NCBI GenBank assembly: GCA_020426515.1
Contig: JAGQPW010000007.1
Span: 10,908 to 74,907, forward strand
Reading direction: 5' to 3'
From: Planctomycetaceae bacterium
GTDB taxonomy: Bacteria > Planctomycetota > Planctomycetia > Planctomycetales > Planctomycetaceae
Length of the DNA: 64,000 bases
Shown here: one piece after another, positions 2,009 through 64,000 of the stretch
How positions within the stretch are numbered: the stretch's first letter is position 1
Layout of the letters: each line of letters begins with the position of its first letter
Notes under the pieces: generated by a model
The model's database searches: none
The model's input: only the letters and a program-made list of their open reading frames with translations
What the model was told of the DNA's origin: nothing
Translations under genes and position numbers: made by a program

Positions 2009-2060
2009 GACTCAGCCTTCTTTCTAGTTGTGGGGAATCGGGTCGGGGTTCAGTCGCATG

Positions 2061-2384
2061 TCACATGGACGAACTGGATGACCCACCATGGTCGGGAAGA
2101 AACTCTTGCAGCAGATTGGTAGCTGCTGCATCGGCGGCCAGACGGGTTGAGTACTCTCCCCGGTCGAGCTTGGCTTTGGCCAGTGCCACCACATCGGGTC
2201 GCACGGCATTGTCTTCCCTGACCGACCTGAGCAATCCTGCGAGGACATCCTCTTCCGTTCGCTGAACTCCGCGTGCATCCGGGGAATTCCCAGTACTCAA
2301 CACTCCACTCGAATTGCCCTGCATCGCAGAGGATTTCGGAGCGGAAAGTTGATGCGGTGTCGTGTGGAAATGGTTGATCTGCAT
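2061..2384 (-). CDS. flgM: Anti-sigma-28 factor FlgM-like
   Basis: 107 aa. The C-terminal VRPDVVALAKAKLDRGEYSTRLAADAAATNLL resembles the FlgM sigma-28-binding region. Located immediately upstream of fliC. Confidence 0.65.
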   Translation of the reverse strand: MQINHFHTTPHQLSAPKSSAMQGNSSGVLSTGNSPDARGVQRTEEDVLAGLLRSVREDNAVRPDVVALAKAKLDRGEYSTRLAADAAATNLLQEFLPDHGGSSSSSM

Positions 2385-2565
2385 AACTCAGGTCTTTCTA
2401 ACCAGCACCAAGGCCAAGCAACGTATCGAAGCATTTCCCGAGGACTTGCCCCCTATTCCGCACAATTCGCCGAAATTCACGGCAACAGAATGGGGTAGCT
2501 GAGGCAATTTTGCCGATTTCAATGATTGACAACGTCTTTACGCCGCAAATCCAGGCAGAAACCCC

Positions 2566-4779
2566 TTGTCCTCTCAAGATTCCCCAATCATTGAGCGGCA
2601 ACAGTCCCCGTATCGAAAGCTGATACTGGTGGGACTGGTGAGCCTGTGCGCTGCGGCCACGGGAATGGCATTGTCGCTGTACGGCAGCCAACTGCTGATC
2701 AAAACCACCAAATCACCCCAATCCACCAAGACTGCCAATAAAGGCGGTCCCCTCCCTGCCGCAATTGAGCGTCCCGATTCCATCTCGCCCTTCTCTCTTA
2801 CATTGAGTGGGGAATCGCTGCTGGATGAGCAGTACGAATGGAGTGGAATTTCGATCACTGAACGTGTTCGCCGGGGAGAGGAGTTTCTGCGCAGTCATGA
2901 GCCCCAGCGGGCCGCCGAGGAGTTCGGTCTCGTCCTCGACAGTCCGGCCGACGAAGCCACTCACTCCGGCCGAACCTACTTGATGTACGGTATTGCCCGG
3001 GAACTCCTGGGCGATCTGGATGGCAGCCTGCGGTCTTACCGAGAAGCTTTCCGACGTGCGCAGCATCCCTGGCAGAAAGCCTGCGTCACCTTGCGTCTGG
3101 CGCACGGAATGTCTCAACAGGACGACCAGTGGGCGACTGCCGTCGGAGTGCTGATGAGCAGCATGCTGCGGCAGGGAGCCGCGACCCCCCTGAATGTCTA
3201 CAACGAGTCCATCATTTCATTGTCGTTGTATATGACGGGCAAACAGTCGGACATTCCGGCCACGACACATCTCATCGATGATGCCACGCTGCTGGTTCCT
3301 CCCTGTCCGGTCAACCCGGACGACATCCTGCAACAATGGGATCAGGCTTGGAGCCTTCCCAGCGACGCCATCACGCAGCTGCAACTGGACTCGGTTCGAA
3401 AACTGGGGCCGCAGCCCAACGAGTGGCTGATCAAGGTGAAGTCCCCCACGATGGCCGTTGAGGATCTGCTGTCCGCACTCGCTCAGAAGGGGGAATGGGC
3501 ATTGCGTATCACCGATGCCGGTCGTCACATCCTGAGCGGTCGCTCCATCACCCTGAACACTCGTGAACTGTCCACCGAAGTCTTCCTGGATGCCCTTTTG
3601 TTGCCGCTTGGTGCAGAGTGGCAGTTCGACGGACAGGTCCTGCAGGTGAGCAGCATCGCGGAGACGATCCCCACGGAAAGTCCGCAACCAAAGCAGCCGG
3701 TCGAATGGTCGTATCAGAATCGGGCGGCCAAGTACCTGCGCTTTGGACTCGTCCAGGCACAGGATCATCCCCTGGCCCCCAAGGTCTACACCTACCTGGC
3801 AAGGCTGGAACTGGCCAGTGGGAAGGCGGCGGCCGCCGCAGGCTACATGGAACAGGTGCTCAACCAGTTTCCTTCAAGTCCGGTTGCCGCCACGATGTGG
3901 TTCAATCTGGCCCGCATTCGAATGCAGGAAGGACAACGTCCGCTGGCCCTGCAGGCATTCTTCCATTCCGCAGATCACATGGACGGCGCCCTGACAACCG
4001 GGGCCAGCTATCTGTACGCCGGTCGGCTGTTGATCGAAGAACAGAAGCCAGACAAGGCCATTTCACTTCTTTTCCGCAGCACTACGCTCCTGACCGGCGA
4101 ACCACGTGGGCGCGCAGCGCTGCTGCTGGCAACAGCCTACCTGATGACCGAGGAACTGTCCTCAGCCAATCAGGTCTTGTGGGACAACCAGAAGGACATT
4201 GCCCTGCCACAGCTCGATGATCAGGCCGCTTTTCTCACCGCATTCATTCGGTATCGCAGCAGCCCACCCGCTCGCAAGGAATACATGGCCCGTAACCTGA
4301 TGACGGCGATGACGCACCTCGATCGCGAACGGCTGTTTGGCGAAAGCTGGTTTCTCCTGCAGGCCGAAGCCTGTCATGAACTGGGCATTTCGGAGGAACG
4401 GCAACGAATCATCATGAGTCAGTTGCAGAAGCCGCTTCCGGAAGCTCAACAACTGCAATTGCGGCTGATGCTGGGACACGTCGAACTGAAAGACAAGAAC
4501 GCCGCAACAACCGCAACGGAGGCCGATGCCCTGCTGAGCATTGAACGTGCCCTCCGACTGGAACGGCAGGGCCAGACGGCTTTGGCCATTGCAGAGTGCA
4601 AGCGGTTGCTGGCGGAGGAATCCACTTCCAAAGACAACCGATTAAAGACGCTCGCCATTCTGGGCCGGTGCTACCAGCAACTCGGACAGCACGACAATGC
4701 CATCCTCTGTTTCGTGGGGATGCTTCCCTCCGATGTCGCTTCCATCGGTACAAATCCCGACACACAGGATCAACAATGA
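2566..4779 (+). CDS. Membrane-anchored TPR-repeat protein, function unknown
   Basis: 737-aa ORF with a TTG start. N-terminal TM segment LILVGLVSLCAAATGMALSLYG, followed by long helical repeat-like sequence. The stop overlaps the next start (ATGA at 4776-4779). Confidence 0.6.
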   Translation: MSSQDSPIIERQQSPYRKLILVGLVSLCAAATGMALSLYGSQLLIKTTKSPQSTKTANKGGPLPAAIERPDSISPFSLTLSGESLLDEQYEWSGISITERVRRGEEFLRSHEPQRAAEEFGLVLDSPADEATHSGRTYLMYGIARELLGDLDGSLRSYREAFRRAQHPWQKACVTLRLAHGMSQQDDQWATAVGVLMSSMLRQGAATPLNVYNESIISLSLYMTGKQSDIPATTHLIDDATLLVPPCPVNPDDILQQWDQAWSLPSDAITQLQLDSVRKLGPQPNEWLIKVKSPTMAVEDLLSALAQKGEWALRITDAGRHILSGRSITLNTRELSTEVFLDALLLPLGAEWQFDGQVLQVSSIAETIPTESPQPKQPVEWSYQNRAAKYLRFGLVQAQDHPLAPKVYTYLARLELASGKAAAAAGYMEQVLNQFPSSPVAATMWFNLARIRMQEGQRPLALQAFFHSADHMDGALTTGASYLYAGRLLIEEQKPDKAISLLFRSTTLLTGEPRGRAALLLATAYLMTEELSSANQVLWDNQKDIALPQLDDQAAFLTAFIRYRSSPPARKEYMARNLMTAMTHLDRERLFGESWFLLQAEACHELGISEERQRIIMSQLQKPLPEAQQLQLRLMLGHVELKDKNAATTATEADALLSIERALRLERQGQTALAIAECKRLLAEESTSKDNRLKTLAILGRCYQQLGQHDNAILCFVGMLPSDVASIGTNPDTQDQQ

Positions 4780-5903
4780 GCCGCGAACGATCCTCTCGTG
4801 ACAAACCGACCCGCCGTGAAAAATTCACGTGGCGCAAGTGTCGACATGGCGTTTTCACCCTCGCCGCCATGAGTCTGCTCACACACCTGGCTCGGGGAGC
4901 TGACACTCCGGATCTCAGCGTTCCCGTTCCGCTGTTCCAGCAGGCCGCGATCGAGTCATCTCGTCCATTGCCTTCGGCATCAGCGCAGGTGGACGAATCG
5001 TCCGATCTGCAAATCCTGAAGGAGGCGCGAATCAAAGAGCTGGAACGGCAGATTCGTGAGGTGAAAGACCGGATCTCCCGGCTGCGTTCACAGCGTCAGA
5101 TCGACGAGACGAAAGTCACGCGAGAAGCGACTTCCAATTCCGATTCCCTTCCAACCACTGAGGTGACCCCAGGGAATCTGATGGTCCCCGATCCGATGCC
5201 GGTTCGAGTCACGCCGCCAACCCCGGACCACACGGTTGCTCCAGCCGACGTCAAGGTTGCCCCCAAGCCAGAGACTCCGACTCCTGAGACTTCGACTCCC
5301 GGTCCCGCTCCAAAGCCCACGGTCCAGCAAGGCGAGCCGGCTGTCGTGCAATCCCCACCCGGAATGGCCGACCCCGCTTCCGCTGAACCGAAGTCGACAC
5401 CAGATGCCACACCGACCCCGGATCGGGTTTTGATTCCGCTACGTCCCGGGGCCCCTGCGCCTGCGTTTCCTCCGCGACTGCCAACCACTGTCGGCGGGCC
5501 GGTAATACCGGAACCAGAGAACACCATCCCGACAGAAAGTGCATTGAACGGGCAAGTCGACCGTATGGCGCTGGCAAACAGCTTGTATGCGACTGGTCAG
5601 TTCGAACAATGCCTGCAAACGCTTGATGCCGTTCTGGACTCCAGCCTGACTCCCGATGACAAGTTGTGGAAGGTGTACCTGAGGGCCTCCTGTCATCGCA
5701 GCCTCAACAATACTCAGGAAGCCGTCCGCATTTATCGAACGATCGCCAGCGGACCGGAAACCGCCTGGACTCATGACCTCGCGCTGTGGTGGCTGGATCA
5801 CCTCAGCGAGCGTGACGAACTGATCAAGCAAACCGAACTGCTGCGCACAGTCCTGACGGAATTCAAAAAGGAGACGAAGCAACTTGACCAGCCTCTCAAT
5901 TGA
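4776..5903 (+). CDS. Pro-rich protein with coiled coil and C-terminal TPR-like region, function unknown
   Basis: The internal ATG at 4776 (MSRERSSRDKPTRRE...) overlaps the upstream stop. Contains a hydrophobic segment VFTLAAMSLLTHLA, a PT-rich linker and a TPR-like end. Confidence 0.55.
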   Translation: MSRERSSRDKPTRREKFTWRKCRHGVFTLAAMSLLTHLARGADTPDLSVPVPLFQQAAIESSRPLPSASAQVDESSDLQILKEARIKELERQIREVKDRISRLRSQRQIDETKVTREATSNSDSLPTTEVTPGNLMVPDPMPVRVTPPTPDHTVAPADVKVAPKPETPTPETSTPGPAPKPTVQQGEPAVVQSPPGMADPASAEPKSTPDATPTPDRVLIPLRPGAPAPAFPPRLPTTVGGPVIPEPENTIPTESALNGQVDRMALANSLYATGQFEQCLQTLDAVLDSSLTPDDKLWKVYLRASCHRSLNNTQEAVRIYRTIASGPETAWTHDLALWWLDHLSERDELIKQTELLRTVLTEFKKETKQLDQPLN

Positions 5904-7516: not shown

Positions 7517-9616
7517 GTGCAAGGATCGCCCGCGCCCATTGATATTCTGCGTACGTTCGTCCCTCAGAAGGACGGACATGGCGCTCCCGTTGCAGGGTGG
7601 GATGACCCAGCTTCGGCATCCATCGCGGGTGGCTTCTCCGGGATTCTCGCGATGCTCGTGAGCCCTCAAACGAACAAGGGCACACCAACAGACCCAACCG
7701 CACCACAGCCAGCCCCTTCAGCATCATCGGATGCAGGTGCTGTTGAGGCCGCAGACGCCGACGAAACCGACACAGCCGAAGTCACCGGACTCTCCCCGAA
7801 TCTGCTGATTCAGGGGACACTGACATTGCCGCCCGAGACGGAATCTGCACTCGTTCTTCCGACGCCACCTTCAGTGCAGCCCGACTCCAATGTACCCACG
7901 GCAGTTGCCGGAACGACCGCGAATGTGAACCCGACGGCACCATCCGTATCGGGCGAGCCTGCCAAGGTGCAGCTGGCGGAAAGCCTGCTGGCCACGTCTG
8001 CAGCCACGCCCGCGAATCAAGCCGAGCAACCATCGCAGAATCAGTCTGCGCAGCCACATCGCGAGTCGCGCCCCGAACAGATTTCCACTCCGGTGCAGGT
8101 CAGCCCGGAGCCATCCTCAGTACCCGTCGAAAGCTCTCCGTCAGAACTGGCTGACAAGCCTGCCTCAACATCAGCAAAGCTCGACACTGCGGTTTCCACA
8201 CAAGAAGTTGAACCGTCCGACGGGAGCGCGTCCAACGCAAGTGGCCTGGTACGCCCTGCAGTCGCCGAGACGACCGTGGAATCACCACTTCCTCCGACTT
8301 CACCTGCCCTGGAGGATGCGCGAAGCGAAATACAATCCCGGCACACCCAACAGCAGGCACCTACTGCGGAACAGGCGTCAACGCTGGTTGTCCCGGCAAC
8401 ACCCAGCGCGGGCCCCGAGCGTGGGACACTGGACGTTGCCGTCGGTAGGACTACGACCTCAGCGGCCCCATCGCCGCAGTCCACAATCCCGATCCAGAAT
8501 GCGGGTGTGAATCGTACCGAGGCCAACAGTCCAACAGTTCCCGAGTCGTCGAAGGCAGAACCAGGAACTCCCGGAACAATTCAAGGGGCGCCTGAAACGC
8601 CAGCGCAGCCCGCGCCTGTAATCGAGAACCAGACTCCGCCTGTTTCAACACCAACCGGATCCGCATCCGATGCCGCTCTGGAGACACCACCCGTTGCGGT
8701 ACCTGGGCCATCATTGGTGACCTCGGTGGAACAACCACCCAGCCGTCCGCGAGTGACTGGTGACTCAGCTGCCAAGGACATCCTCGTCAGCAGCGTCGAG
8801 CCGCAAACTGCGGCAGTACAGGCACCCGTTGCGACGCCGCGTTCGCAGGAACGACAACAACATCCGGAAGATCAGTCTGCATCGCCTCAGCCCGAGACAC
8901 CCGCTCGAGACGCTGCGATGCCGAGGCTGAGCTCCACAGATTCGAAACGGTCGGAGGCAGTCTACCGGCAAGTTGCCCGTGATGCGTCAACAGCACGAAT
9001 CACATCCCCCCCCGCACTGTCGGTGGCGGGAGTGGAATGGAATCCTCCACCAGAAGCTCCACTCAAAGGATCACCGGGATCAACTCACGCTGCCGTCACG
9101 GGAATTGAAGGCGTAAGTGTTGCGCAGACAGGCGCTGCCACCGCTACCTCAGCCAGTATGGGCATGCCGGCCGTCGTGGCTCCAACATCCAGTCTGGTCT
9201 CGACACCTGATTCGTCTCAGATGCGCAGTGACTTCGTCGCTCAGGCGGCCACACTGATTCAGAGTGTCCCAGCAGGTGACGAACAACGTGTCATGATGCG
9301 GCTCGATCCACCGGAACTGGGCCGCGTGCTGATTCGTATCCGCCGCAGCAGCGAGAAACTCAGCGTTCACATTGAATCAGAATCCGCGAGAACACTCTCC
9401 GTGCTCCGCGAACAACATGGACAACTGGTCGACAGTCTCACCAACGGAATGTCCGAATCGGGACAAATCGACCTCAGCTATTCAGACGGACAACAACAAG
9501 GGTGGGAGCAGACCGAAGAGCAATTGCCTCGACTGGTACCGTTCCCAGTGGAATCCGATGCGGGAGGTTCGGGAGAAGTCCCGGCAGCCCGCCAGGAACT
9601 CAACTTCGTCGCCTGA
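7517..9616 (+). CDS. fliK: Flagellar hook-length control protein FliK (long Pro/Ser/Thr/Ala-rich spacer)
   Basis: The C-terminal Flg_hook-like block is MMRLDPPELGRVLIRIRRSSEKLSVHIESESARTLSVLREQHGQLVDSL. The track start 7418 (TTG) and the ATG at 7478 lie on or upstream of the sigma-54 promoter. GTG 7517, preceded by aaggat, is therefore proposed as the start, but it remains uncertain. Confidence 0.75.
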   Translation: MQGSPAPIDILRTFVPQKDGHGAPVAGWDDPASASIAGGFSGILAMLVSPQTNKGTPTDPTAPQPAPSASSDAGAVEAADADETDTAEVTGLSPNLLIQGTLTLPPETESALVLPTPPSVQPDSNVPTAVAGTTANVNPTAPSVSGEPAKVQLAESLLATSAATPANQAEQPSQNQSAQPHRESRPEQISTPVQVSPEPSSVPVESSPSELADKPASTSAKLDTAVSTQEVEPSDGSASNASGLVRPAVAETTVESPLPPTSPALEDARSEIQSRHTQQQAPTAEQASTLVVPATPSAGPERGTLDVAVGRTTTSAAPSPQSTIPIQNAGVNRTEANSPTVPESSKAEPGTPGTIQGAPETPAQPAPVIENQTPPVSTPTGSASDAALETPPVAVPGPSLVTSVEQPPSRPRVTGDSAAKDILVSSVEPQTAAVQAPVATPRSQERQQHPEDQSASPQPETPARDAAMPRLSSTDSKRSEAVYRQVARDASTARITSPPALSVAGVEWNPPPEAPLKGSPGSTHAAVTGIEGVSVAQTGAATATSASMGMPAVVAPTSSLVSTPDSSQMRSDFVAQAATLIQSVPAGDEQRVMMRLDPPELGRVLIRIRRSSEKLSVHIESESARTLSVLREQHGQLVDSLTNGMSESGQIDLSYSDGQQQGWEQTEEQLPRLVPFPVESDAGGSGEVPAARQELNFVA

Positions 9617-9656: not shown

Positions 9657-10040
9657 ATGGATGTCACCGGAACGAGCTCTGCCAGCACCATCGACCAACA
9701 GCAGTTCCTGAATCTGCTGGTCACTCAATTGAAACACCAGGATCCGTTGAACCCGATGGATCAGCAGGAGCAGATTGCGCAACTGGCCCAATTCTCGACC
9801 GTGGAAGGTATCGAGAAGTTGAACGCCAGCTTCAGCCAGATGCTGAACATGCAGATGCTCACCAGCAGCAGCAACATGCTGGGAGCGACCGTGGAGTACA
9901 ACAGCGAAGATTCGCTGCTGCCGCTCACAGGAACGGTCGAGCGAATTGCCACAAAGAACGGATCTCTGCAACTCACCATCAACGGGGAACAGGTTCCGAT
10001 CGAGAACGTACTTGCACTCGTGCAACCTTCTGCTGCCTGA
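9657..10040 (+). CDS. flgD: Flagellar hook cap/assembly protein FlgD
   Basis: From ATG 9657: MDVTGTSSASTIDQQQFLNLLVTQLKHQDPLNPMDQQEQIAQLAQFSTVEGIEKL, the FlgD signature. The upstream part of the track ORF overlaps fliK. Confidence 0.9.
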   Translation: MDVTGTSSASTIDQQQFLNLLVTQLKHQDPLNPMDQQEQIAQLAQFSTVEGIEKLNASFSQMLNMQMLTSSSNMLGATVEYNSEDSLLPLTGTVERIATKNGSLQLTINGEQVPIENVLALVQPSAA

Positions 10041-51554: not shown

Positions 51555-51861
51555 TGTGGACAACCTGTTGATGAACTGGGTCCGATCCGTGCAGAACGAA
51601 CCTCATCCCGATGGCCGCTCGAATCGGGTGTGCGTAACCCTTGGTTTTACTGACCATCCCTGCACGGCATGTCCACAGAGTATCATGGTGTTTTGAACAC
51701 GATCAGGCGGCCTCTGAATGGCAATAACTTGCGATTTCACCTACACTTCGGATTCAGATTGTGCCGACTCTCCACAATTTTCGGCTCGTCTGTTTCCACT
51801 ACTCCTTTCTCTTTAAGTGTCTGGACCTTCCGGTCTTTCAAATGACCGGAGATGTGGACAA
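51555..51861. promoter_or_regulatory. Cluster of four DnaA-box-like 9-mers upstream of dnaN
   Basis: TGTGGACAA at 51555-51563 and 51853-51861. TGTGGACAT on the reverse strand at 51669-51677. TGTGGAGAG on the reverse strand at 51768-51776. Consensus is TGTGGATAA. Confidence 0.4.
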
Positions 51862-51890
51862 AGCGAACTACACAGCGGAACGGAATTGTC

Positions 51891-53015
51891 ATGAAACTGA
51901 CTGTCTCACGGAGTGAATTGGCCGGTGCGTTTCAAATCGTCGGAGGAGCAGTTCCGTCACGTACCCCCAAGGACATTCTCAAGAACGTTAAACTTGTCGT
52001 CGACAACGGCACGGCCACGCTGATGGGGACCGACCAGGAAGTTGGCATCCGGTATCAGCTGCCTGAGGTTCAGACGGATTCCGTAGGTGAAGTCCTGCTG
52101 CCACCGCAACGGGTCGTGGCTATTCTGCGTGAAGTTCAGGACGACATGATCCACCTGGAAGTCACCGAAGAAACATTGTGGATTCGTTCGGGACAGAGCG
52201 AGTTCCGGCTGTCAGTCGAAGATCCGGCTGAGTTTGCCAATGTGCCGGACTTTCAGGAGGAAAGCTACTACATCATGCAGGGGCGGGCTCTGAAGCAGGG
52301 AATTCAGCGCACGCTGTTCGCTACGGACCCGGAGAGCACACGCTATGCCCTGGGAGGTGTGCTGCTGGAACTCGATCAGGAAGACATCACACTGGCCGCT
52401 ACGGACTCTCGACGGCTGGCCGTGTACAAATCCTCCTGCAAGGCACAGGGAGCCGCCAGCGAAGAGGTAGGCGTTCCGGTCATTCCCTCCAAGGCGATGC
52501 AGCTGATCGACCGCAGCATCCATGATGACGATCAGGAAGTGCATCTGGCCATTCATCAGAACGATGTGCTCATCCGCAGTGGTCTGTCCACCATCTATGC
52601 TCGCCTCGTGGAAGGACGTTTCCCTCGCTACCAGGACGTTATGCCTTCGCACTTCGGGATCACGATTGATCTTGTCGTGGGACCATTTCATTCGGCAGTG
52701 CGGCAGGCCATGATTGTGACCAACGATGGCAGTCACGGAGTCGACTTCCAGTTTGCAGATGGCACGCTCACCCTGACCAGTAGCGGGGCAGATGTCGGGT
52801 CCTCCAAGATTCAGATGCCGATCGGCTACGACGGAGAAGAGTTCACGGTCACGTTTGACCCCAAGTATGTGGCCGACTTCCTGAAGGTTCTCGATCCAGC
52901 CTCACCGGTCAGCCTGAACCTGGTGGATCCGAACTCAGCGGCTGTGTTTAAGTCGGGGGACAACTACACGTACGTGGTGATGCCGTTGTCCAATGAGGAT
53001 CGCGGCGGCCAGTAA
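51891..53015 (+). CDS. dnaN: DNA polymerase III beta sliding clamp
   Basis: From ATG 51891: MKLTVSRSELAGAFQIVGGAVPSRTPKDILKNVKL...ATDSRRLAV...YVVMPL. The track start 51852 overlaps a DnaA-box-like site. Confidence 0.95.
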   Translation: MKLTVSRSELAGAFQIVGGAVPSRTPKDILKNVKLVVDNGTATLMGTDQEVGIRYQLPEVQTDSVGEVLLPPQRVVAILREVQDDMIHLEVTEETLWIRSGQSEFRLSVEDPAEFANVPDFQEESYYIMQGRALKQGIQRTLFATDPESTRYALGGVLLELDQEDITLAATDSRRLAVYKSSCKAQGAASEEVGVPVIPSKAMQLIDRSIHDDDQEVHLAIHQNDVLIRSGLSTIYARLVEGRFPRYQDVMPSHFGITIDLVVGPFHSAVRQAMIVTNDGSHGVDFQFADGTLTLTSSGADVGSSKIQMPIGYDGEEFTVTFDPKYVADFLKVLDPASPVSLNLVDPNSAAVFKSGDNYTYVVMPLSNEDRGGQ

Positions 53016-53476: not shown

Positions 53477-56140
<2,664 letters not shown>

Positions 56141-56237: not shown

Positions 56238-56309
56238 AATTGCAACTCTTCCGGAAGACGTTTGAATGAAGTCTTGTGGATGAAGAAACCCGGTCATTCA
56301 AAGCAAAAG

Positions 56310-57701
56310 TTAATAGGTGAATCCTGGATTGAAACCATTCAATGGGTTGGTTGCCGATACCACTGACCGACTGCTTGGGTCGCGTAGAGTCATGTCGATC
56401 ACTTCTGCCCTAGCCCCCCCATTTAGGAATCGCAGAACTTCCGCGATTACGAGTGAGGCGGCCGCTGTGCCAACAAACGGCGCGCCCACAGACCGCGTGG
56501 CGAGTTGAACCAAGCCGCAGTCATCCATTCCCTTAGCCGACAAATCCTGGTACGCAGCTCCATTCGGTCCTCGGGAGCGATGTACCTCAACATCACTCCA
56601 TTTCCGGCGTGCCGTGGTCGTTGCAGGGAAGGTGTGAACGCGCAGGGCAAGGTATTCCGTCGGACCTGACCCTAAGCCGGATTCGACAATCCAGTCAAAG
56701 CCAGCGTCTTCGTATGCGGCCCGCGCTTGGGGATTATCCACACCTCCAAGTGCCAATCGAGGTTCCTGCTCGGTAACCTTCATTCCCCCGGGGAATGGGC
56801 GCTCGATGACTCTTGCGTTGAAACCGCGCGCTTCTGCCCACTCCGCCATCGTCCTGGTTTTGAGGCGACCAATAAGCTCGCCGCTGGTGAGAAGTGAGGT
56901 ACTGTCGTTGGACTCGGCAAGCCGATCGAAATCCTGCAAGTAGAGCATCACCTTCGAAGGGTCTGCGTAGGGTAACAAGCCGAGCACCCATAGATAGGCT
57001 TGCCCAAGATGGCCGAGCCCAATCAGCCAAAGGTTCGCTGGGAAAACGATGTCGAGCGGACCGGCAGGTGCATTTTCCCAATCAATCGACTCTGGACTCC
57101 AGAGTGAAAGGCCGACGCGCCGCCGACCGGCCATCGGGTTGCCGCGCAAGTTTTGAAAGACCTCCGAGAGGGCAATCGCCGAAGCGAGAATTGCTGCTGG
57201 AGTGATTGCCCTTTGTGAGGGTAGCGAGTGTGAATCGGCTTGCGGCACAACGCCGCCGCGCCAATCGCTGAAGATGACATTCAGGCAAATTTGGTGCTCG
57301 TTCGATGTGCGATTCACACTGCCCAGAATCAGCGTAGGCATCGTCCCGGCGACTTCGTTAATCGCGTGCCCACCGAGGGCGGCTACGGCTCCAGCAAGGG
57401 TTCGTTGGCCGGGAACCGGAACTAGCAGCGGAGTGTCGAGACTCCCTTCGATGTAGACGCCACCGAGTAGTGCACGTCGCGCAACATTGACGAGAGTGAG
57501 CAGAGCAGCCTGATGGGCAGGAGACTTCTGAACCTCTGGGCCGACACGAACACCGATACGATACGTGCGAAACAGATAGTACCCGTCGGCAACGGTTGCG
57601 ACTTCGCCGCTATCAATCGCGATTTTCACAACGCGACTGAGTGTATCGGCGCTCGTCTGGCTGCTGTCAAAACTCGTAAAGGGCATTACTTCGGAAATCA
57701 T
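56310..57701 (-). CDS. bilD: E1-like (ThiF/MoeB-family) ubiquitin-like-activating enzyme, BilD-like
   Basis: Rossmann LWLIGLGHLGQAYL (GxGxxG) in the C-terminal half, preceded by an N-terminal second lobe. ATG 57701 overlaps the JAB stop (ATGA). The track ORF start 57761 is a TTG inside the JAB gene. Confidence 0.8.
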   Translation of the reverse strand: MISEVMPFTSFDSSQTSADTLSRVVKIAIDSGEVATVADGYYLFRTYRIGVRVGPEVQKSPAHQAALLTLVNVARRALLGGVYIEGSLDTPLLVPVPGQRTLAGAVAALGGHAINEVAGTMPTLILGSVNRTSNEHQICLNVIFSDWRGGVVPQADSHSLPSQRAITPAAILASAIALSEVFQNLRGNPMAGRRRVGLSLWSPESIDWENAPAGPLDIVFPANLWLIGLGHLGQAYLWVLGLLPYADPSKVMLYLQDFDRLAESNDSTSLLTSGELIGRLKTRTMAEWAEARGFNARVIERPFPGGMKVTEQEPRLALGGVDNPQARAAYEDAGFDWIVESGLGSGPTEYLALRVHTFPATTTARRKWSDVEVHRSRGPNGAAYQDLSAKGMDDCGLVQLATRSVGAPFVGTAAASLVIAEVLRFLNGGARAEVIDMTLRDPSSRSVVSATNPLNGFNPGFTY

Positions 57702-58183
57702 ATTAAACCCCAACTGACTTTGAGGACGGAGCGGGCTTGCCAACCGCTGAGGTTGGTCCAACGATGGTCACCTTCGTAGTGAAACACGCCGAGCCGGTGA
57801 CGCCAGATCCATCCAAACGCATAGTTCGGAACGATGATCGCAAGATGTCCGGCGCGAGCAATCATGGGGTTTGTTCGGTCCACCTCGCTTTGGAATGCCC
57901 CGGCAGGGTGCGTGTGTATGTCGGCGATGACGGTTAGCTTTTCTGCGCGGCAGATCTCCCAAAGGCGGGTAAACGAGTCGCCCTGCAGAATGCAGACGCC
58001 GATCGAATATGCTTGCGGGTCAAGCTCATCATAGAACACGCAACGATGCGCTTGCCGTTTATCGCCTTTGACAGTTCCAAGAATGAAGCACCCGGATTCG
58101 TGCCGACCGTGGCTCCTGAATTGAAGCTCCGTCATGCAGCGAAGCCAAAGACTTCGCTGGAATCGAATCAGCGGCTTAGCCAC
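57698..58183 (-). CDS. bilC: JAB/MPN (JAMM) metallopeptidase, BilC-like deconjugating/processing enzyme
   Basis: HESGCFILG (Glu) followed by [16 protein letters not shown] (HxH...SxxD JAMM motif). The GTG start overlaps the E2 stop by 8 nt. Confidence 0.85.
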
Positions 58184-58649
58184 CTCGCACTCCTTTGTAG
58201 TCGCTTGAATTGAGTAAGGAATGAAGTTCGTCCAAGTAGAGGACTACACCTCGGCTTGGCGACCACTGAAGGGCGGGGTATTCATTTCGCCAGTTGTCGT
58301 GCCCCACCGCAGCGATTCGATCGCAAGGCAGGTAGAGGCATGTTCCATCTTTCCACTCGGGTCTGAAGACCGCTGGAATCCGAGACGCTCCACCGGGCCA
58401 TCGATTGAAGGGAAGCGGCTGGTCTGCTTCGTGATCCCACGGCCGAGCCGTGGGAGCCTCTTGCGAATAGCCGCTGCAATCGAAGCGAAACCAGTATTCA
58501 TTTGGAGCCCCGTCGCGAGCTGCCGCTGCGACGGCAATCTGCACGATAGGCCAGGCGATTGAACCCAGCTTCCAACGATTCAGGTGAACCCCGAGTTGGA
58601 AAGCACCCGCCGCGACGTGGTCGCGGAAGGCACGCTCATCGGGACGCAT
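58176..58649 (-). CDS. bilB: E2-like ubiquitin-like-conjugating enzyme, BilB-like
   Basis: From ATG 58649: [20 protein letters not shown]...[20 protein letters not shown]...FNRWPGG...[20 protein letters not shown], with candidate catalytic Cys residues. The assignment comes from its position between the Ubl and JAB genes plus an E2-like size and pattern. The upstream part of the track ORF overlaps the Ubl gene and is rejected. Confidence 0.65.
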
Positions 58650-58668
58650 GTTGTTTGTGTCCAAGTGA

Positions 58669-59163
58669 CTAGCCCTCGACGCGTTTGATGGGCACCAGGT
58701 TGAAACAGAGCGAGCAGCATCCGCACACCAGGGTTCCGATTTGCGTGTCCGGCTCCGGGCGGTCGTCGGAGCCGCAGATTTGGAGCACGTGCTCGGTAGC
58801 ATCGACGGGCGACATGCCAATCGCATGCACAAAGCGTTTCTTCACATGGTCGACCGTGTTTGCAGTGGGAAACTGCATGACCTCGGTTAACTCGTTGAAG
58901 TGCAGCGTGACTTCGACTTTGCGGCAGCGGTGAACGTGCACTCGGTGCTTGTCGCAAATGCCTTGTTTGCTCAGCGCGACATCGGGCTTGAGCGGGGTTT
59001 CGTCATCGGAACCGAAGACATGTGCATCCGCGCGATGCTTCTCGGGGAACCCGAGTTTCACAGCGGCTTCCAACACGTCAGCGACCGAGGCTTCGCTGTC
59101 GAGTTGGATGAGTTCCACTCCGCGACTGCCTTCGAACTGCAGGAATAATTGAATTTTCGACAT
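58669..59163 (-). CDS. bilA: Tandem beta-grasp ubiquitin-like protein ending in Gly, BilA-like
   Basis: 164 aa in two halves of about 80 aa with similar alternating patterns ([12 protein letters not shown]... and [14 protein letters not shown]...). The C-terminus ...LVPIKRVEG is followed immediately by the stop codon. First gene of the four-gene cluster. Confidence 0.7.
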
Positions 59164-59346
59164 TGGCCTTGTTCCTCTCTCGTTACTGGTTGAAGCTTGT
59201 CGGCCATCATTGGCCTCACACTTTCTTCAACCGGCGAGAAGGCCCAATCGGAAATGTCAGCCGCGAACATTTTTGATGCGGGGAGAGACTTGCAAGCGCA
59301 GCACCGCCGCCGAGCGACGGAACTGGTACTGACAAGAACTTGCTGC

Positions 59347-62300
59347 CTAGCGAGTAGGGCCTTGGGCCGGGCAGATAAAGAAGTATGGACAGGACGGACA
59401 GCGTTGGCTTAGCCTCGGGTCGAAGCGTCCGTTACCGGCTGCGGCAATGGCGCTTTCGCAAGCCTTCAACTTGTCCCCCGCCTTTTTCGATTTGTCGGTT
59501 GCAGCTCGACGTTCACCGTCGAGCAGAGACACATGCTCGAAGTGGACTTCTTCGTTGGGATGGTCGGAGCGAATGGCAACCTGCAGGAGAATGTATCGCG
59601 GTTTGTCCTCTTCGGATTTAGCCAGTCGCCCAGCCTTCAACCTACGGATGACGATTCCATTCGGAGTTCGTTCAATCTGATCTGCGCGACAACTGATGAC
59701 CGCGCCGTTTCCGGGGGCGACAACTTGCCGTGCCGCGGGCAAGTTCTCCCCGCTCATCACCCCGTGCGCCGCCTCGATCATGGCCTTCGCCATGCGGCGG
59801 TAAAGGGGCTCGAAAGGATGATCGCCTGGGCCGAATTTCTCCCAGTCCTCCTCGAAGCGGGCGATTAGACCGTCCCGTCGTTCGTCTGCCGATGCGGTCT
59901 CGCGTAGCCAAGCCATGCTCGCATGCAGTGCTGATTGGAACTTGAGAAACGGCGAGGCGGCGTCTGCTCCGCCAAGTTCTAGGGCGTGATCGTAGTAGAA
60001 TCGGCGAGGGCAATCGATATAGGTCTCGATTTCCCTTGCTGTCCACCGGTCGTTCGCCATTCGCCCGACGAGCAAGGGAAAAGTCGGCTCGGGAATGCCG
60101 TCAGCGGTCCACCTAGGCGATACGTCTATGCGGTGTGGCAAATGGGAAGAAACTGTTTCGAGAAACCGCGAGGGCCTCGTATTTCGCATGCCATTTGTCT
60201 GCGCTCGCGAAAGGTGCAAACCGTCTCTGGCACGGGACGCTCCAACGAAGAACAGGCTGTCCTCTTCTGCATCTCTGGTCATCAACACGTCGGAACTAAT
60301 CAGTCCAGGTGGAAGCGGACACGGCTCGTATCTGTTGGGGGCCGGAAACTGTGTGCCAGTCAGAGCAAGGATATGAACGATGGGAAACTCTAACCCCTTG
60401 CTCGAATGCACTGTCATCAACCGAACCGCATCAATGTCGCTGACCGCGGCGGGCAACTGACGAAGCTGCTTCTCTTCGTCGAGGATTTCGAGACGACGGA
60501 CGTGTGCCAGAAAAGCGCGCTTCGGATCGTCTTTCTTCGACGGCTTGAACGCGAAGGCGAACTGTAGCAATTGGTAGATGGCAAGCCGCCGCTGCTGGCC
60601 TGGAACGGTGTCATCTGCCATGAAGGGTTGCAGGTAGCCGCTTCGCCTCAAAAGATACGAAATAAGAAAACGATGCGGCGACAGAGGCCATTCTGCATCT
60701 TGGACGTCGGCGACAAGCCTGGCCAGGCCTTTACGTCCCCGTTGGCTGATACCCGGCACGTTTGCAAAGTCTCGAAGCGTCTTGAGCATCGTCTCTTGCT
60801 GCTCCCGTCGCCTTTGGAACAACGCGCCGATGTCTTCAGCAGGCACGTCATACATTGGCAGCTGCGCGACACGGAAAAGCCCAACTCCCTTGGGCTCAGC
60901 GACGAGAGACAAGAGTGAGAGTAGGTCGCGGATCTCGGGGCGCTCGAAAAAGTCCCCGAAGTACAGACAGGGCACGCAAGCATCTTCAAGTTGCTTTGCC
61001 AGCCGTGAAAGGATCGTGTGCGATCGAGCGAGAATGGCGTGGTCGGCGAATTTTGAACCGGCCTCCACTCTTGCCAGAATTTCCTTGGCGATGCCGTGCG
61101 CTTCGGCTTCACGAGTCGTGGCCACGTCGTACTGAACGGTACCGTGATTCGCTCCGCGATTTGCAGTCAGCGCTCCTGTGGTGGCGCTCGCACCAGCCGC
61201 CATCCCTCGGCCAAACGATTCGAACAGCTTCACGATTCGTCCGCCTGAGCGATAGTTGACAGAGAGGTCTGTCGTCTTTGCTCCAGGAAACTCATGCGAG
61301 AACCGAGCCATATTGAGAGGCGATGCACCTCGGAAGCGATAAATCGATTGTCGGACATCTCCGACAACCCACGGTCCGCGACCTGGGGTGCAAAGTTCCT
61401 TGAGCAGCAAGGCGCTGGCGCGATTCATGTCTTGATATTCATCGACAAGAACGTGACGCTTGTCATTGCGGACAGCCTCTCGCACCTCGGGGTTATCGCG
61501 GAGCAGTTTGATTGGCAGGGCGACGAGATCGCCGAAGTCGACGACGCCCCGTTCCCTCAACGCTGCTTCGTAGATGGCGTAGATTCGGGCGACTTCTATC
61601 GCTCGATCCGCCGCCTTCTGTGAATCTTGGTCGGTAGATTCTTCTGCCATCGCCCTGGCAGCATTCATGTAGTCGTCAGGTGAGGCGAGTTCATCTTTTG
61701 CCCGACCGATAGCCCCGAGTATCGAGCGCAGTTTCAGCATCGGCTCGTGCAGATCGAGGTAGTGACTCAGTTCCAGACTTGGAAGCAAGTCTTCCAACAG
61801 CATCAATGAATCGGTGCGATCGAGAAGCTTTGGTTCAGATTCAAAACCCAGCAAGTGACCATGCTTTCGCAAAAGTTCCAGTCCGAAAGCATGAAACGTT
61901 CCGGACCAAATCGCAGTGGCCTTTTCTCCGACTTCTGATCGAATCCGACTCGCCAGATCTTGTGCAGACAGATTGGAGTAGGTAAGTGCCAGAATCGAAC
62001 AGGGTGCTTCGCCTCTACTGATTAGGTGGGCGATTCGTCCGACTAGAGTTCTTGTCTTTCCGGTTCCGGGACCTGCTCTGACCTGTCGTGGTTCATCCGT
62101 AGCGGTGATTGCCTCTAGCTGGCTTGCGTCAGGTTCGGTTTCACGGCGTGGTTCAGATTGCGTATTACCTTCGGCTGGCAGTAACAGAGCGTCGGCCAGT
62201 TGCTGCATGACAAGATCGACCGGGATGCCGATCTCGCTAGCGATGGCATCGGATTCGGGTATGCCGCTGGAACAACGTTGTCGGAGCTTGTTTCGAGGGA

Positions 62301-62721
62301 GGAGAAACTCTCTAGCGAACAGGTTGGCTTGGGCTTCTGCACGTTCCTTCGGACTGTACGAGTCCTGATCTCCGACGGAGGACATCTCTGGTTCTGAAGG
62401 AACCAGGAGATCCAAGTCCGCATTGGCGCAGGCCGCTCCGGCCTCATCGAGCCAGTGGTGTGCGAACTCATGCGCAATGTGGAAATGCGCAAGTGGTAAC
62501 GGAGTGGCATTCGAGTAGTAGATTCTCTGACGTTCTCGATCGTACGCAGCCTCCGCTCCATCCAGAAGTGTGTCATCTGGAGGCCGACTGACGAACCTTA
62601 TTCCTGTTGCCGCTTGTGCGGCAGCCAGAAGGGCACTTGCCGTAATGAGTGCGTCTGCGCCGTTGTCAAACTCGCTATGACGTTGTTTCGCCAAACGTCG
62701 AACTTCCTTCCACGCGCTCAT
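59347..62721 (-). CDS. Three-domain fusion: ImmA/IrrE-type Zn-peptidase + UvrD/Rep SF1 helicase + Cas4/AddB-like Fe-S nuclease domain
   Basis: Peptidase: HIAHEFAHHW (HExxH) plus ERAEAQANLFAREFLLP. Helicase: AGPGTGKT, VDEYQDMN, GDVRQSIYRFRGA, VNYRS, MTVHSSKGLEFP, FFVGASRAR. C-terminus: YIDCPRRFYY ... CPSCPYFFIC (C...CxxCx5C). Confidence 0.85.
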   Translation of the reverse strand: MSAWKEVRRLAKQRHSEFDNGADALITASALLAAAQAATGIRFVSRPPDDTLLDGAEAAYDRERQRIYYSNATPLPLAHFHIAHEFAHHWLDEAGAACANADLDLLVPSEPEMSSVGDQDSYSPKERAEAQANLFAREFLLPRNKLRQRCSSGIPESDAIASEIGIPVDLVMQQLADALLLPAEGNTQSEPRRETEPDASQLEAITATDEPRQVRAGPGTGKTRTLVGRIAHLISRGEAPCSILALTYSNLSAQDLASRIRSEVGEKATAIWSGTFHAFGLELLRKHGHLLGFESEPKLLDRTDSLMLLEDLLPSLELSHYLDLHEPMLKLRSILGAIGRAKDELASPDDYMNAARAMAEESTDQDSQKAADRAIEVARIYAIYEAALRERGVVDFGDLVALPIKLLRDNPEVREAVRNDKRHVLVDEYQDMNRASALLLKELCTPGRGPWVVGDVRQSIYRFRGASPLNMARFSHEFPGAKTTDLSVNYRSGGRIVKLFESFGRGMAAGASATTGALTANRGANHGTVQYDVATTREAEAHGIAKEILARVEAGSKFADHAILARSHTILSRLAKQLEDACVPCLYFGDFFERPEIRDLLSLLSLVAEPKGVGLFRVAQLPMYDVPAEDIGALFQRRREQQETMLKTLRDFANVPGISQRGRKGLARLVADVQDAEWPLSPHRFLISYLLRRSGYLQPFMADDTVPGQQRRLAIYQLLQFAFAFKPSKKDDPKRAFLAHVRRLEILDEEKQLRQLPAAVSDIDAVRLMTVHSSKGLEFPIVHILALTGTQFPAPNRYEPCPLPPGLISSDVLMTRDAEEDSLFFVGASRARDGLHLSRAQTNGMRNTRPSRFLETVSSHLPHRIDVSPRWTADGIPEPTFPLLVGRMANDRWTAREIETYIDCPRRFYYDHALELGGADAASPFLKFQSALHASMAWLRETASADERRDGLIARFEEDWEKFGPGDHPFEPLYRRMAKAMIEAAHGVMSGENLPAARQVVAPGNGAVISCRADQIERTPNGIVIRRLKAGRLAKSEEDKPRYILLQVAIRSDHPNEEVHFEHVSLLDGERRAATDKSKKAGDKLKACESAIAAAGNGRFDPRLSQRCPSCPYFFICPAQGPTR

Positions 62722-62731
62722 CTTGGTGCTC

Positions 62732-63355
62732 CTAGTGAGAAGTCTCGCTTGTGACGATTCGTCTCCATTCTTCCTTTATCGGAGTCGAAAGCTCTGACGT
62801 TGTGACTGCGTCGAGGAACGACTCCTGTCGCAGTACCGGCTTTCCCTTCGCCTTGTAGCTCGACAATGGAATTGGATCTCCCATCAATACTCGCGAAACA
62901 TCCTCGACGGCAAATTGCAGTGCCGCAGCAATTCCCTCAATACATCGCTGAGGAATGCTCGCAAAAACAATCAAGTGGCGATCAAGCTTTGCCAATAGCG
63001 TGTCATCGAGTTTGCATTGATCCATCAACGTCTGCTCGGAACATCCCGAGGCGCGGATCATCTTGTGGAGGCGAGATTCGGTCGTAGCTCGCAGTTCGGT
63101 AGTCGGAGCGGTCTGATGGTGAATCAAGTTCAAAGCATGGCTGACCATTTTGCTCGCGACACGATCTTCATCAATTACAGGACGTTCGCCACGCTCTTTC
63201 TGTTCGGCCCACGTCGCAAAAAAGCTCGTAAGCTGATCCCGATGCTCGGGGTAGAGCTCGCACCAACGAAGTAGCGCGTCGTATTGGGGTTCCGGTTCCT
63301 GGAGCATGATTTCATCCAGGATGTCTTCAAATGTCACTTGGTCCTTCCTGTTCAT
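62732..63355 (-). CDS. Hypothetical protein with a possible central HTH, partner of the ImmA-like fusion
   Basis: ATG 63355 overlaps the upstream stop (ATGA). Its stop lies 10 nt before the fusion-gene ATG, with AGGAG in between. The segment IRASGCSEQTLMDQCKLDDTLLAKLDR looks HTH-like by eye. Confidence 0.5.
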   Translation of the reverse strand: MNRKDQVTFEDILDEIMLQEPEPQYDALLRWCELYPEHRDQLTSFFATWAEQKERGERPVIDEDRVASKMVSHALNLIHHQTAPTTELRATTESRLHKMIRASGCSEQTLMDQCKLDDTLLAKLDRHLIVFASIPQRCIEGIAAALQFAVEDVSRVLMGDPIPLSSYKAKGKPVLRQESFLDAVTTSELSTPIKEEWRRIVTSETSH

Positions 63356-64000
63356 ATTGATTCTCCCAGTGCAGTACGCATTTGCATCATCGCCCCTTTG
63401 AGCCAATTCTGGATCTGTCGCGGAGACTTCTTAAAATGCGTGCTGAGAGTTGGTTTTGCGATTTCTGTACTTGAGATTTGCCATCCTTGGAGATGATGTA
63501 AAATGACCGCCTCGCGATGAAGTGGATTCGAAATAGCGGCAAGTGCTTTTCGAACCTGTTCGGGCCGAAGACGTTGTGCTTCGGCGAGCAGTGCTATCTC
63601 GCCAGGGTCTGGTTTCCCGTCCGAGTGGGAGGCAATGACTCCATCGTTGTCCTCGCCAATATCCTTGGCCTGAATTCTCGACTCGCTGCATTCGTGCTTC
63701 AATCGTTCTTTGAGTTTCGAGCGTTTGTTGATCGCACGCCGCTCAATCGCTCTGCGAAAGACGATTTCCAGAATCTCGCTTTGCCGACTCGGCGTGCTTG
63801 TGAAGATGAGCAGATTGACCTCTTCGGCAATCTCAATCGCAAATTCTTCGGCGATGTTGGGCGGGAAACCAGATGCGAAATCTCTTGCAATCTGAGCGAT
63901 GCGTTTTCCCAAGCACTCAATCAGCCTCCCGATGTTTTTCTGGTCGTTGCAACGCCAAAGCCATCGAATGAGGTAAACCAGAGTCTCACTCTTCAACGCG
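63352..64000 (-). CDS. Sigma-70-family (ECF-like) protein, probably N-terminally truncated by window end
   Basis: Region-4-like LHREAVILHHLQGWQISSTEIAKPTLSTHFKKSPRQIQNWLKGAMMQMRTAL and region-2-like FAIEIAEEVNLLIF...ILEIVFRRAIERRAINKR. The reading frame is open to the window edge. Confidence 0.5.
   Translation of the reverse strand, partial: ALKSETLVYLIRWLWRCNDQKNIGRLIECLGKRIAQIARDFASGFPPNIAEEFAIEIAEEVNLLIFTSTPSRQSEILEIVFRRAIERRAINKRSKLKERLKHECSESRIQAKDIGEDNDGVIASHSDGKPDPGEIALLAEAQRLRPEQVRKALAAISNPLHREAVILHHLQGWQISSTEIAKPTLSTHFKKSPRQIQNWLKGAMMQMRTALGESI

Follow-up and report, generated by a model that had tools for sequence, protein, structure and literature searches.

The DNA analysed here, referred to as the window, is a 64,000-nt stretch of contig JAGQPW010000007.1 from the genome assembly of a Planctomycetaceae bacterium (GCA_020426515.1). 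Seven co-directional genes occupy the minus strand at one end of it (56310–64000). The last four encode a ubiquitin-like protein (Ubl), an E2-like protein, a JAB deubiquitinase-like protein and an E1-like protein in the order bilA, bilB, bilC, bilD, and are recognised by PADLOC as a Bil defence operon. The three genes preceding them, here named g1, g2 and g3, encode a sigma-like protein, a partner protein with a helix-turn-helix (HTH), and a fusion of an M78 peptidase with a helicase and a nuclease-like domain. In the reading favoured here, to which we assign a probability of roughly 0.55, g1-g2-g3 form a dedicated and self-contained transcriptional switch of the seven-gene Bil cassette, which would resemble CapH/CapP in being triggered by DNA and in acting by proteolysis, and would in this way free a sigma factor.

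The initial annotation of the window had described a contiguous block of seven same-strand genes, and the listing of open reading frames (ORFs) on the minus strand agrees with this. The translational coupling proposed for the first two genes can likewise be read in the sequence, with the stop codon of g1 and the start codon of g2 overlapping as ATGA at 63355–63352. The 183 nt reported between the front-end genes and the Ubl gene (59164–59346) are also present, running on the same strand from the g3 stop at 59347 to the bilA ATG at 59163. A further ATGA overlap joins bilC and bilD at 57701–57698, so that translational coupling reaches into the bil genes themselves. Two details required correction. 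The junction of g2 and g3 does consist of a 10-nt gap followed by the g3 ATG at 62721, but the AGGAG assigned to this gap is located at 62733–62729, where it overlaps the g2 stop codon and is not wholly contained in the gap. In addition, g1 is truncated in the window, as no stop interrupts its frame before base 64000 and full-length homologues are 250–272 aa in length. The features of the locus are listed in Table 1.

Table 1. Genes, protein domains and predicted promoter of the Bil cassette in the window (window coordinates; E, E-value of the profile match).
Feature	Coordinates	Strand	Description
g1	63352..64000	-	truncated to its C-terminal 215 codons; some 55 N-terminal codons and the g1 promoter fall outside the window
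g2	62732..63355	-	207 aa; partner protein of g1
g3	59347..62721	-	1124-aa fusion of M78 peptidase, UvrD-type superfamily 1 (SF1) helicase and iron-sulphur (Fe-S) PD-(D/E)XK-like domain
g3, Peptidase_M78 (ImmA/IrrE/CapP-like)	62209..62559	-	aa 55-171; HEFAH at aa 84-88; PF06114 E 5.2e-11
g3, UvrD/PcrA-type helicase core	60211..62127	-	aa 199-837; PF00580 E 7e-63, PF13361 E 2e-28
g3, C-terminal AdnAB/AddB-like nuclease fold with 4-Cys cluster	59368..60048	-	aa 892-1118; PDDEXK_1 PF12705 E 1.2e-12
Predicted cassette-specific bilA promoter	59227..59254	-	-35-like TTTCCGATT at 59254-59246; -10-like CCGGTTGA at 59234-59227; predicted start ~59220
bilA, ubiquitin-like protein	58669..59163	-	PADLOC BilA E 4.4e-47, full length
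bilB, E2-like protein	58176..58649	-	likely ATG 58649; PADLOC BilB E 6e-61; Pfam DUF7665 E 7e-61
bilC, JAB deubiquitinase-like protein	57698..58183	-	PADLOC BilC E 1e-59
bilD, E1-like protein	56310..57701	-	likely ATG 57701; PADLOC BilD E 1.4e-160

To follow up a check suggested in the initial annotation, the co-occurrence of g1, g2 and g3 with each other and with Bil was examined by comparative genomics, and it was found to extend well beyond this genome. The seven genes are present in the same order in approximately 23 distinct loci from the Planctomycetota, Acidobacteriota and Proteobacteria (the window, L001, L002, L003, L005–L008, L011, L013–L017, L019, L021 and L024, together with L031, L040, L042, L048, L053 and L055), and the genes flanking the cassette are unrelated between these loci. 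Using tblastn, the seven genes were recovered in order in all sufficiently long loci, and g1-g2-g3 stood in order in every locus where a relative of g1 or g2 was recovered with sufficient surrounding DNA. Where the gene context of individual g1, g2 or g3 relatives was looked up, it was each time g1-g2-g3-bilABCD. When the g2 family was searched against one genome per species, 11 loci were identified, belonging to Pirellulales, Isosphaeraceae (Tautonia, Isosphaera), Acidobacteriota (Bryobacterales, Acidoferrum), Sphingomonas and an Alcaligenaceae bin. Scanning metagenomes with distant family members as seeds gave 33 loci, in which g2 and g3 follow g1 wherever there is room for them and most of which continue into bilABCD. 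The g1 family itself is large, with an exhaustive HMMER search using the g1 profile returning 935 clusters (at 50% identity) with E ≤ 1e-3, 524 with E ≤ 1e-10 and 125 with E ≤ 1e-30. The seven genes are inherited as one unit.

It had also been considered that these genes represent two independent systems placed side by side in a defence island, in which case a sequence motif shared by the g1 and bilA upstream regions (described below) would be coincidental, or a recombination or operator site unrelated to g1. Defence genes are indeed found in clusters, and g1-g3 are not listed by PADLOC as part of Bil. Furthermore, there are four lineages which possess intact g1-g3 without bil (L033, L036/L046, L044, and L056 on an Aquincola plasmid), and these count against a switch dedicated to Bil. 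Two of the four, however, retain traces of bil genes. In L044 (5020–5815) the promoter motif is followed by a C-terminal remnant of bilD and a truncated DUF499 gene, and L056 (13033–13362) has a truncated bilA fragment of 109 aa, which indicates that at least these two are decayed Bil cassettes and not front ends with an alternative cargo. No recognisable defence cargo occurs 3′ of g3 in the other two, with L033 (6350–10104) having a LysE exporter and a LuxR regulator at this position and L036 (14850–18300) having unknown ORFs and a YbjN-family ORF; the possibility of an alternative cargo for the front end was rejected on these observations. The side-by-side arrangement is also opposed by P0235, the most divergent g1 relative looked up (E 3e-28, near the bottom of 150 listed), which is found within the cassette as well, and by the shared motif, whose two copies vary in step within a locus and which stands at a constant distance from the start codon of g1. 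Given that the gene order is kept in some 23 loci of three phyla with unrelated flanks, the proposal of two independent neighbouring systems is effectively refuted.

The closest relative of the window cassette occurs in a Pirellulales metagenome-assembled genome (MAG), where positions 9356–17063 of L008 share 91.9% identity over 7.7 kb with positions 56290–64000 of the window. This identity ends approximately 20 nt past the bilD stop codon, and the flanks are unrelated, those of the window consisting 3′ of bilD of convergent gyrB (53585–56140) and dnaN (51852–53015). Such an abrupt end of identity between unrelated flanks indicates that the cassette moves as a unit whose downstream limit is sharply defined. 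A complete cassette is carried on the conjugative plasmid pRLN3 of Rhizobium leguminosarum strain Norway (NZ_CP025015, g1 at 21222–20428), Tautonia sociabilis GM2012 is another carrier, and a g2 relative was matched on a plasmid of Sinorhizobium medicae. Among the close loci, identity to the window ranges from 31 to 88% for g1, 34 to 92% for g2 and 55 to 96% for the helicase core of g3, with the Bil proteins falling between. The similar fast rates of g1 and g2 fit a co-evolving pair of regulators.

Other defence-related genes were observed in the vicinity of some cassettes. In an Acidobacteriota MAG (L003, JAKOVX010000009) a Bub-type operon (1300–5290) encoding Multi_ubiq, Prok-E2_E, ThiF, TCAD9 and BubE, and adjoined by a HEPN_Swt1/DUF499 gene, lies approximately 5 kb upstream of the seven-gene Bil cassette, placing two Ubl-conjugation systems in a single island. 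Toxin-antitoxin genes of the AbiEii and DUF6088 (AbiEi-like) types are recurrent neighbours, being located directly and divergently upstream of g1 in the unrelated loci L005 (7358–8985) and L007 (7271–9008) and also nearby in L001 (2963–3721). Rfam and tRNA scans of the window gave no match.

The sigma-like nature of g1, as suggested in the initial annotation, was upheld by its predicted fold and by its homologues, but not by a profile match of the window copy itself. The AlphaFold2 model of g1, with a mean predicted local distance difference test score (pLDDT) of 81.5, consists of two helical domains joined by a disordered linker (residues 127–162), and the 50 best matches of a Foldseek search against the PDB are without exception chains of sigma factors or RNA polymerase complexes that contain one, mostly of the extracytoplasmic function (ECF) type. 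These include SigH and SigL of M. tuberculosis, E. coli sigmaE, AlgU, CnrH, SigW and SigK, with approximately 180–215 columns aligned, and show the sigma2 and sigma4 architecture with a flexible linker to be shared by g1. At the level of sequence, the sigma70-ECF profile TIGR02937 gave full-length matches in 10 of 18 g1 homologues that are significant but below threshold, among them P0004 (E 6.7e-6), which is 80% identical to the window g1, and Sigma70_r4_2 matched weakly in 5 of the 18. The g1 homologue of Aquincola has been labelled by PGAP as a 'sigma factor-like helix-turn-helix DNA-binding protein'.

A number of observations tell against this identification. No Pfam or PADLOC profile matched the window g1 at E ≤ 0.1, and no NCBIfam match was obtained either for it or for P0001, which is 100% identical to it. 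The best TIGR02937 match of the family (P0020, E 1.4e-9) scores 37.8 bits against a curated cut-off of 42.9, and none of the curated sigma profiles (Pfam Sigma70_r2/r4, TIGR02937) is matched above its cut-off by the g1 family. A sequence-profile search of the PDB with the family of 18 homologues returned chance matches only and no solved sigma factor. The Foldseek probabilities reach 1.0, yet the E-values are marginal (3.5e-3 and weaker) and the TM-scores (template modelling scores) are low, the latter because the two domains are oriented freely with respect to each other. Based on the predicted fold and on the sub-threshold TIGR02937 matches of the homologues, we conclude that g1 is a putative divergent ECF-type sigma-70 factor with a conserved N-terminal extension of approximately 55 aa, the assignment to the sigma-70 family being one of fold and promoter logic and not of curated score cut-offs.

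The promoter logic comes from a motif of fixed spacing, TTTCCGGTT-N12-CGGTTGA, which occurs both upstream of g1 and upstream of bilA in all close loci. Its consensus, derived from 24 distinct instances in aligned g1-upstream DNA and g3–bilA gaps, is gatTTCCGGtt-N12-CcGGTTGAaga. In the 64-kb window the pattern TTCCG-N15-SGGTTG has a single exact match, at 59228–59253 on the coding strand. The promoter that the initial annotation had anticipated within the g3–bilA gap can thus be placed at this conserved bipartite motif, which in related loci also precedes g1. Across 18 loci, the pattern was found in 16 only upstream of g1 and bilA and always on the coding strand, the other two giving no match, and L014 has a tandem second copy of the motif upstream of g1. 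A scan of the 56–64 kb region for sigma-70 promoters and intrinsic terminators identified no site in the g3–bilA gap. The GTT-containing -10 element recalls promoters of the SigH/SigR type.

The positions of the motif in related loci would provide g1 with a dedicated -35/-10 promoter. In 12 of 12 close loci, including L008, an in-frame ATG or GTG start codon of g1 is located 7–9 nt past CGGTTGA, from which the g1 mRNA would be leaderless or nearly so. The motif could in principle be an operator instead, which would weaken the case for a private sigma factor, but this fixed geometry between motif and start codon argues for a promoter. A direct-repeat operator was also considered, as CCGGTT occurs twice, and was rejected because the two halves diverge independently in distant loci.

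In the divergent loci L019, L021, L024, L048/L051/L053 and L056 both copies of the motif change together. The motif takes the form TTTCCGRT-N17-CGATTATGAATA in L019, TTACCGACTTTG-N11-CGGATTG in L021 and TTCCGATTTCC-N10-GCGACTTA in L056, and it ends in TATTGATGT in L024 and in GCGATTAT in L048, L051 and L053. Motif pairs from the same locus are more alike than pairs drawn across loci (permutation p ≤ 5e-5), although base composition contributes to the similarity within loci and lessens the weight of this result. Each box diverges without regard to the other, which is what would be expected if sigma4 and sigma2 read them. As the hosts span three phyla and the motif is unlike TTGACA/TATAAT, its use most simply requires the cassette's own sigma factor, and from these sequence patterns we infer that g1 recognises the motif pair.

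The HTH-like segment noted earlier in the second gene was confirmed as a match in structure. The AlphaFold2 model of g2 (pLDDT 79.5) has four N-terminal helices, a central unit of five helices and two C-terminal helices, and the central unit resembles C.BclI, SinR, C.AhdI, DdrO, ClgR and Cro in Foldseek (target-normalised TM-score 0.6–0.74 over approximately 60 residues), identifying an XRE-type HTH at about aa 96–157; a linker, PIPLxSYKAKGKP, is also conserved, and this linker and a second one at residues 79–92 are candidate sites of cleavage. By fold, therefore, g2 is an XRE-family HTH protein encoded beside an M78 gene. Sequence profiles are weak in comparison, which counts against the favoured reading: the window protein has no Pfam or PADLOC match at E ≤ 0.1, the g2 family (52 matches) is without a Pfam domain, and a family profile search gave a weak match to the XRE regulator 3vk0 (E 0.067). 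The N-terminal domain shows only a faint similarity to DUF4880, the N-terminal domain of FecR anti-sigma factors, in 4 of 29 members (E 0.02–0.1). We regard g2 as a candidate anti-sigma factor or repressor and as a candidate substrate of the protease.

The third gene had been described as a helicase-nuclease fused to a protease. The UvrD-type helicase has intact motifs, as described, while its nuclease fold is without a catalytic acid. The HExxH, the Walker A motif GPGTGKT, DEYQD and four cysteines are invariant in the g3 proteins of 14 loci. Across the same loci the M78 domain conserves HEFAH, EAQANLFAREFLLP and EAQANxFARE(L/F)LLP, and thus has the HExxH with a downstream Glu, and the cysteine pattern CPR...CPxCxxxFxCP is invariant, giving the four-Cys Fe-S signature in combination with SF1 helicase motifs. 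Among solved structures, the nuclease domain of M. smegmatis AdnAB is the nearest to the C-terminal domain of g3. When the two are aligned, VVVDLKTGK of AdnAB pairs with IVIRRLKAG of g3, such that the catalytic Asp of D-x-K is replaced by Arg, and the Asp at this position is the residue changed to Ala in the nuclease-dead AdnAB crystal constructs. The Arg is invariant in the 14 loci and in the distant branch, where the Lys of (D/E)xK is lost too. The motif II Asp is retained, leaving g3 with an incomplete PD-(D/E)XK triad. With its catalytic acid replaced by Arg the nuclease fold is probably inactive, and judging from these residues the domain is probably a DNA-binding module and not a nuclease, which fits a role as sensor better than the description 'helicase-nuclease'.

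No GAF match was found in g3 with Pfam, the M78 domain ending at about aa 171 and UvrD beginning at aa 199, and a sequence-profile search of the PDB with the M78 domain gave chance matches only. Some assemblies contain g3 or g1 as separate ORFs or without the N-terminus (L019 3270–6680 and 1800–2610; L008 9190–9400), and these may be frameshift errors of assembly and not true pseudogenes. Fragments of this kind made up most of what a word-indexed search with the M78 domain retrieved.

A different role for g3 would be that of a second effector, which unwinds or blocks phage DNA beside Bil, with its protease directed at a phage or Bil protein and g1 and g2 merely setting expression. UvrD-type helicases do act as effectors or co-effectors in several defence systems, the helicase motifs of g3 are intact, and its helicase core is the best conserved part of the front end (see identities above). 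PADLOC matched g3 to GajB and to a DRT-associated helicase, matches which are of generic UvrD type. Membership of Gabija was rejected, there being no GajA match to any of the seven genes in PADLOC, and g3 is therefore also without a GajA-like partner as an effector. The family-wide loss of the nuclease motif leaves it with no obvious means of destroying DNA, and protease/repressor switches are typified by an M78 domain encoded beside an XRE-HTH gene. We consider an effector role for g3 unlikely.

M78 peptidases encoded beside XRE repressors, as in ImmA/ImmR and IrrE/DdrO, cleave that repressor after DNA damage, and an ECF sigma factor usually controls its own expression and is translated together with its inhibitor. 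In the proposed switch, g1 would direct RNA polymerase to two promoters, one of which would provide positive feedback on g1-g2-g3 and the other expression of bilABCD. In the resting cell g2 would hold the system off by sequestering g1 as an anti-sigma factor, by binding the promoters, or by both, at a ratio of g2 to g1 that would be fixed by their translational coupling. The helicase and dead-nuclease module of g3 would scan DNA, taking the place of the GAF-like sensor of CapP/IrrE, and on meeting free DNA ends or unwound single strands, arising from phage or from damage, the M78 domain would cleave g2. Free g1 would then allow Bil to be expressed. The inhibition of g1 by g2, the cleavage of g2 by M78 and the role of DNA as trigger are all steps that we infer by analogy with the known systems.

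The question of how g2 would act is bound up with an inverted repeat, TTTCCG-N3-7-CGGAAA, which overlaps the -35 box in about half of the g1 promoters (for example L001 at ~9915–9935, ATTTCCG-GTT-CGGAAAT, and L008 at ~9150–9170, as well as L014 and L015). Most bilA promoters lack the repeat, which could serve the HTH of g2 as an operator confined in its effect to the regulator operon. Its presence in L001, L008, L014 and L015 would also suit an arrangement in which g2 is a CapH-like repressor of both promoters, g1 is a required sigma factor that is never sequestered, and M78 cleavage de-represses transcription. The XRE HTH fold of g2, which is like that of CapH, DdrO, SinR and C proteins, points in the same direction, as does the fact that the HTH partner is a DNA-binding repressor in all characterised M78/HTH pairs. 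Yet a repressor of both promoters is difficult to reconcile with the lack of the inverted repeat in most bilA and around half of g1 promoters, with the extra conserved N-terminal four-helix domain of g2, or with the position of g2, which is the classic one of an anti-sigma factor translationally coupled to the sigma gene. It is a rather improbable account, though one less so than that of g3 as an effector.

The switch proposed above can be extended, more tentatively, to a host-independent 'sense-and-transcribe' device, in which a motor-driven DNA sensor would activate an M78 protease, the protease would destroy an anti-sigma/HTH protein, and a private sigma factor would be released to act on two promoters. 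Here the UvrD-type translocase, with its disabled AddB-like end-binding domain, would track along foreign or broken DNA, and this tracking would activate the fused M78 domain mechanically or allosterically. One of the two private promoters would yield a leaderless mRNA. This fuller form is possible, and we hold it with less confidence than the dedicated switch as such.

Several other elements were identified in the intergenic DNA. In the window, a stem-loop 3′ of g3 lacks a U-tract and has a z-score of -1.0, and a terminator at this position is therefore not supported; in L005 the g3–bilA gap contains a convincing terminator, in which GTTTTCTT comes after a strong hairpin. In most loci there is a short hairpin just past the predicted bilA transcription start (window 59201–59220; also L002, L005, L011, L014 and L016, and the distant L019, L024, L031, L040, L048 and L053), with arms that differ between loci. 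In the distant branch these arms are AGGAG-like and CUCCU-like, resembling a Shine-Dalgarno (SD) and anti-SD pair, and the loop AUAAAACGCCG is conserved. A second hairpin, GCC-N4-5-GGC, stands directly before the real SD of bilA. These hairpins in the 5′ untranslated region of bilA suggest that translational control is possible, although the one in the window is not significant (z = -0.29) and values for individual loci range from -3.2 to +0.5. Many copies of both promoters also have a run of 5–8 A or T, which precedes the -35-like box by approximately 10–20 nt (for example window 59271–59275, L006 9845–9855 and L017 ~9130). This run resembles an UP element, and in some g3–bilA gaps it could be the tail of a terminator.

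Of the known systems, CapH/CapP, which regulates CBASS, Bil, Bub and further defence operons, is the one most like the proposed switch. The M78 protein CapP cleaves the HTH repressor CapH when bound to single-stranded DNA (ssDNA), and 24 CBASS systems are mentioned, in one sentence, as having a sigma-70-family factor beside capH and capP (Lau et al. 2022, bioRxiv 10.1101/2022.04.27.489752). CapH/CapP accompany 15% of Bil operons and are divergent to them in all but one (Chambers et al. 2023, bioRxiv 10.1101/2023.09.26.559546). The likeness lies in the pairing of an M78 gene with an adjoining XRE-type HTH gene directly ahead of a defence operon, of which Bil is a known example, in ssDNA as the known trigger of CapP, and in the sigma factor seen with the pair in CBASS. 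The differences are considerable. The g3 peptidase is without a GAF-like domain and is fused to approximately 930 aa of UvrD helicase and degenerate Fe-S nuclease fold; g1-g3 are co-directional with bil in every locus, where CapH/CapP are usually divergent; g2 has an additional N-terminal domain and is coupled to a sigma gene; and the promoters of the cassette are not sigma-70-like and number two per cassette. In the strict sense, membership of CapH/CapP fails on the GAF domain and on orientation. The nearest precedent is that of the 24 CBASS systems, for which no follow-up was found in the literature.

More distant comparisons can be made with each of the three front-end proteins. ImmR/ImmA of ICEBs1 and DdrO/IrrE of Deinococcus share the M78 protease with a neighbouring XRE repressor, DdrO being among the fold matches of g2, but neither includes a sigma factor or a fusion to a helicase, and their targets are genes of mobile elements or of DNA repair and not a defence operon. 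ECF sigma/anti-sigma pairs share the small two-domain sigma factor, the co-translated partner and the auto-regulation from a dedicated -35/-10 promoter, and the pair DdvS/DdvA, which controls the type III-B CRISPR-Cas system of Myxococcus xanthus, shows that a private ECF sigma factor can govern a defence system. In contrast to such pairs, g1 has its conserved N-terminal extension and falls below the ECF profile cut-offs, its partner g2 is cytoplasmic and carries an HTH, and release is proposed to occur through a cytoplasmic helicase-fused M78 peptidase and not by membrane proteolysis or conformational change. In g3 a four-Cys domain of the RecB/AddB type comes after a UvrD-like SF1 motor, as in AdnAB/AddAB/RecBCD, from which it differs in being a single polypeptide with one motor, an Arg in place of the (D/E)xK acid and an N-terminal M78 peptidase. 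Finally, CapW or CapK/CapS are DNA-damage-responsive regulators encoded beside Bil and Bub operons (PMC13373217). CapW, a WYL repressor, and CapK/CapS, a GHKL kinase with a STAS-wHTH protein, are alike to g1-g3 in this position beside Bil/Bub, but are unrelated to them as proteins, de-repress a host-type promoter and supply no sigma factor. A literature search found no description of an M78-UvrD fusion or of a sigma factor together with a helicase in defence, nor of a dedicated promoter pair or a seven-gene form of Bil.

What is new in relation to a DNA-responsive switch of the CapH/CapP type is the swapped sensor domain, the added sigma factor, the co-directional layout and the private promoters. 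The manner in which defence operons are silenced and switched on is an active question, and the known regulators of Bil (CapW, CapH/CapP and CapK/CapS) all act after DNA damage by relieving the repression of ordinary host promoters. If the proposed switch is correct, the cassette supplies a private sigma factor together with a promoter pair for it, which would explain how one cassette can work across phyla. Its protease would also have exchanged the sensor domain for a helicase motor. In the fuller form, as a 'sense-and-transcribe' device, the cassette would allow Bil to remain silent yet inducible in hosts as unlike as Planctomycetes, Acidobacteria and Rhizobia, and no earlier defence system would have been shown to combine a sigma factor of its own with a motor-driven DNA sensor. 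The plasmids of culturable Rhizobium and Sinorhizobium carry members of the family, making the model directly testable in these hosts. The family is large and unannotated, with its proteins labelled 'hypothetical' or 'UvrD-helicase domain-containing', and for annotation the finding would mean that many Bil systems are units of seven genes and not of four, marked by a simple DNA pattern.

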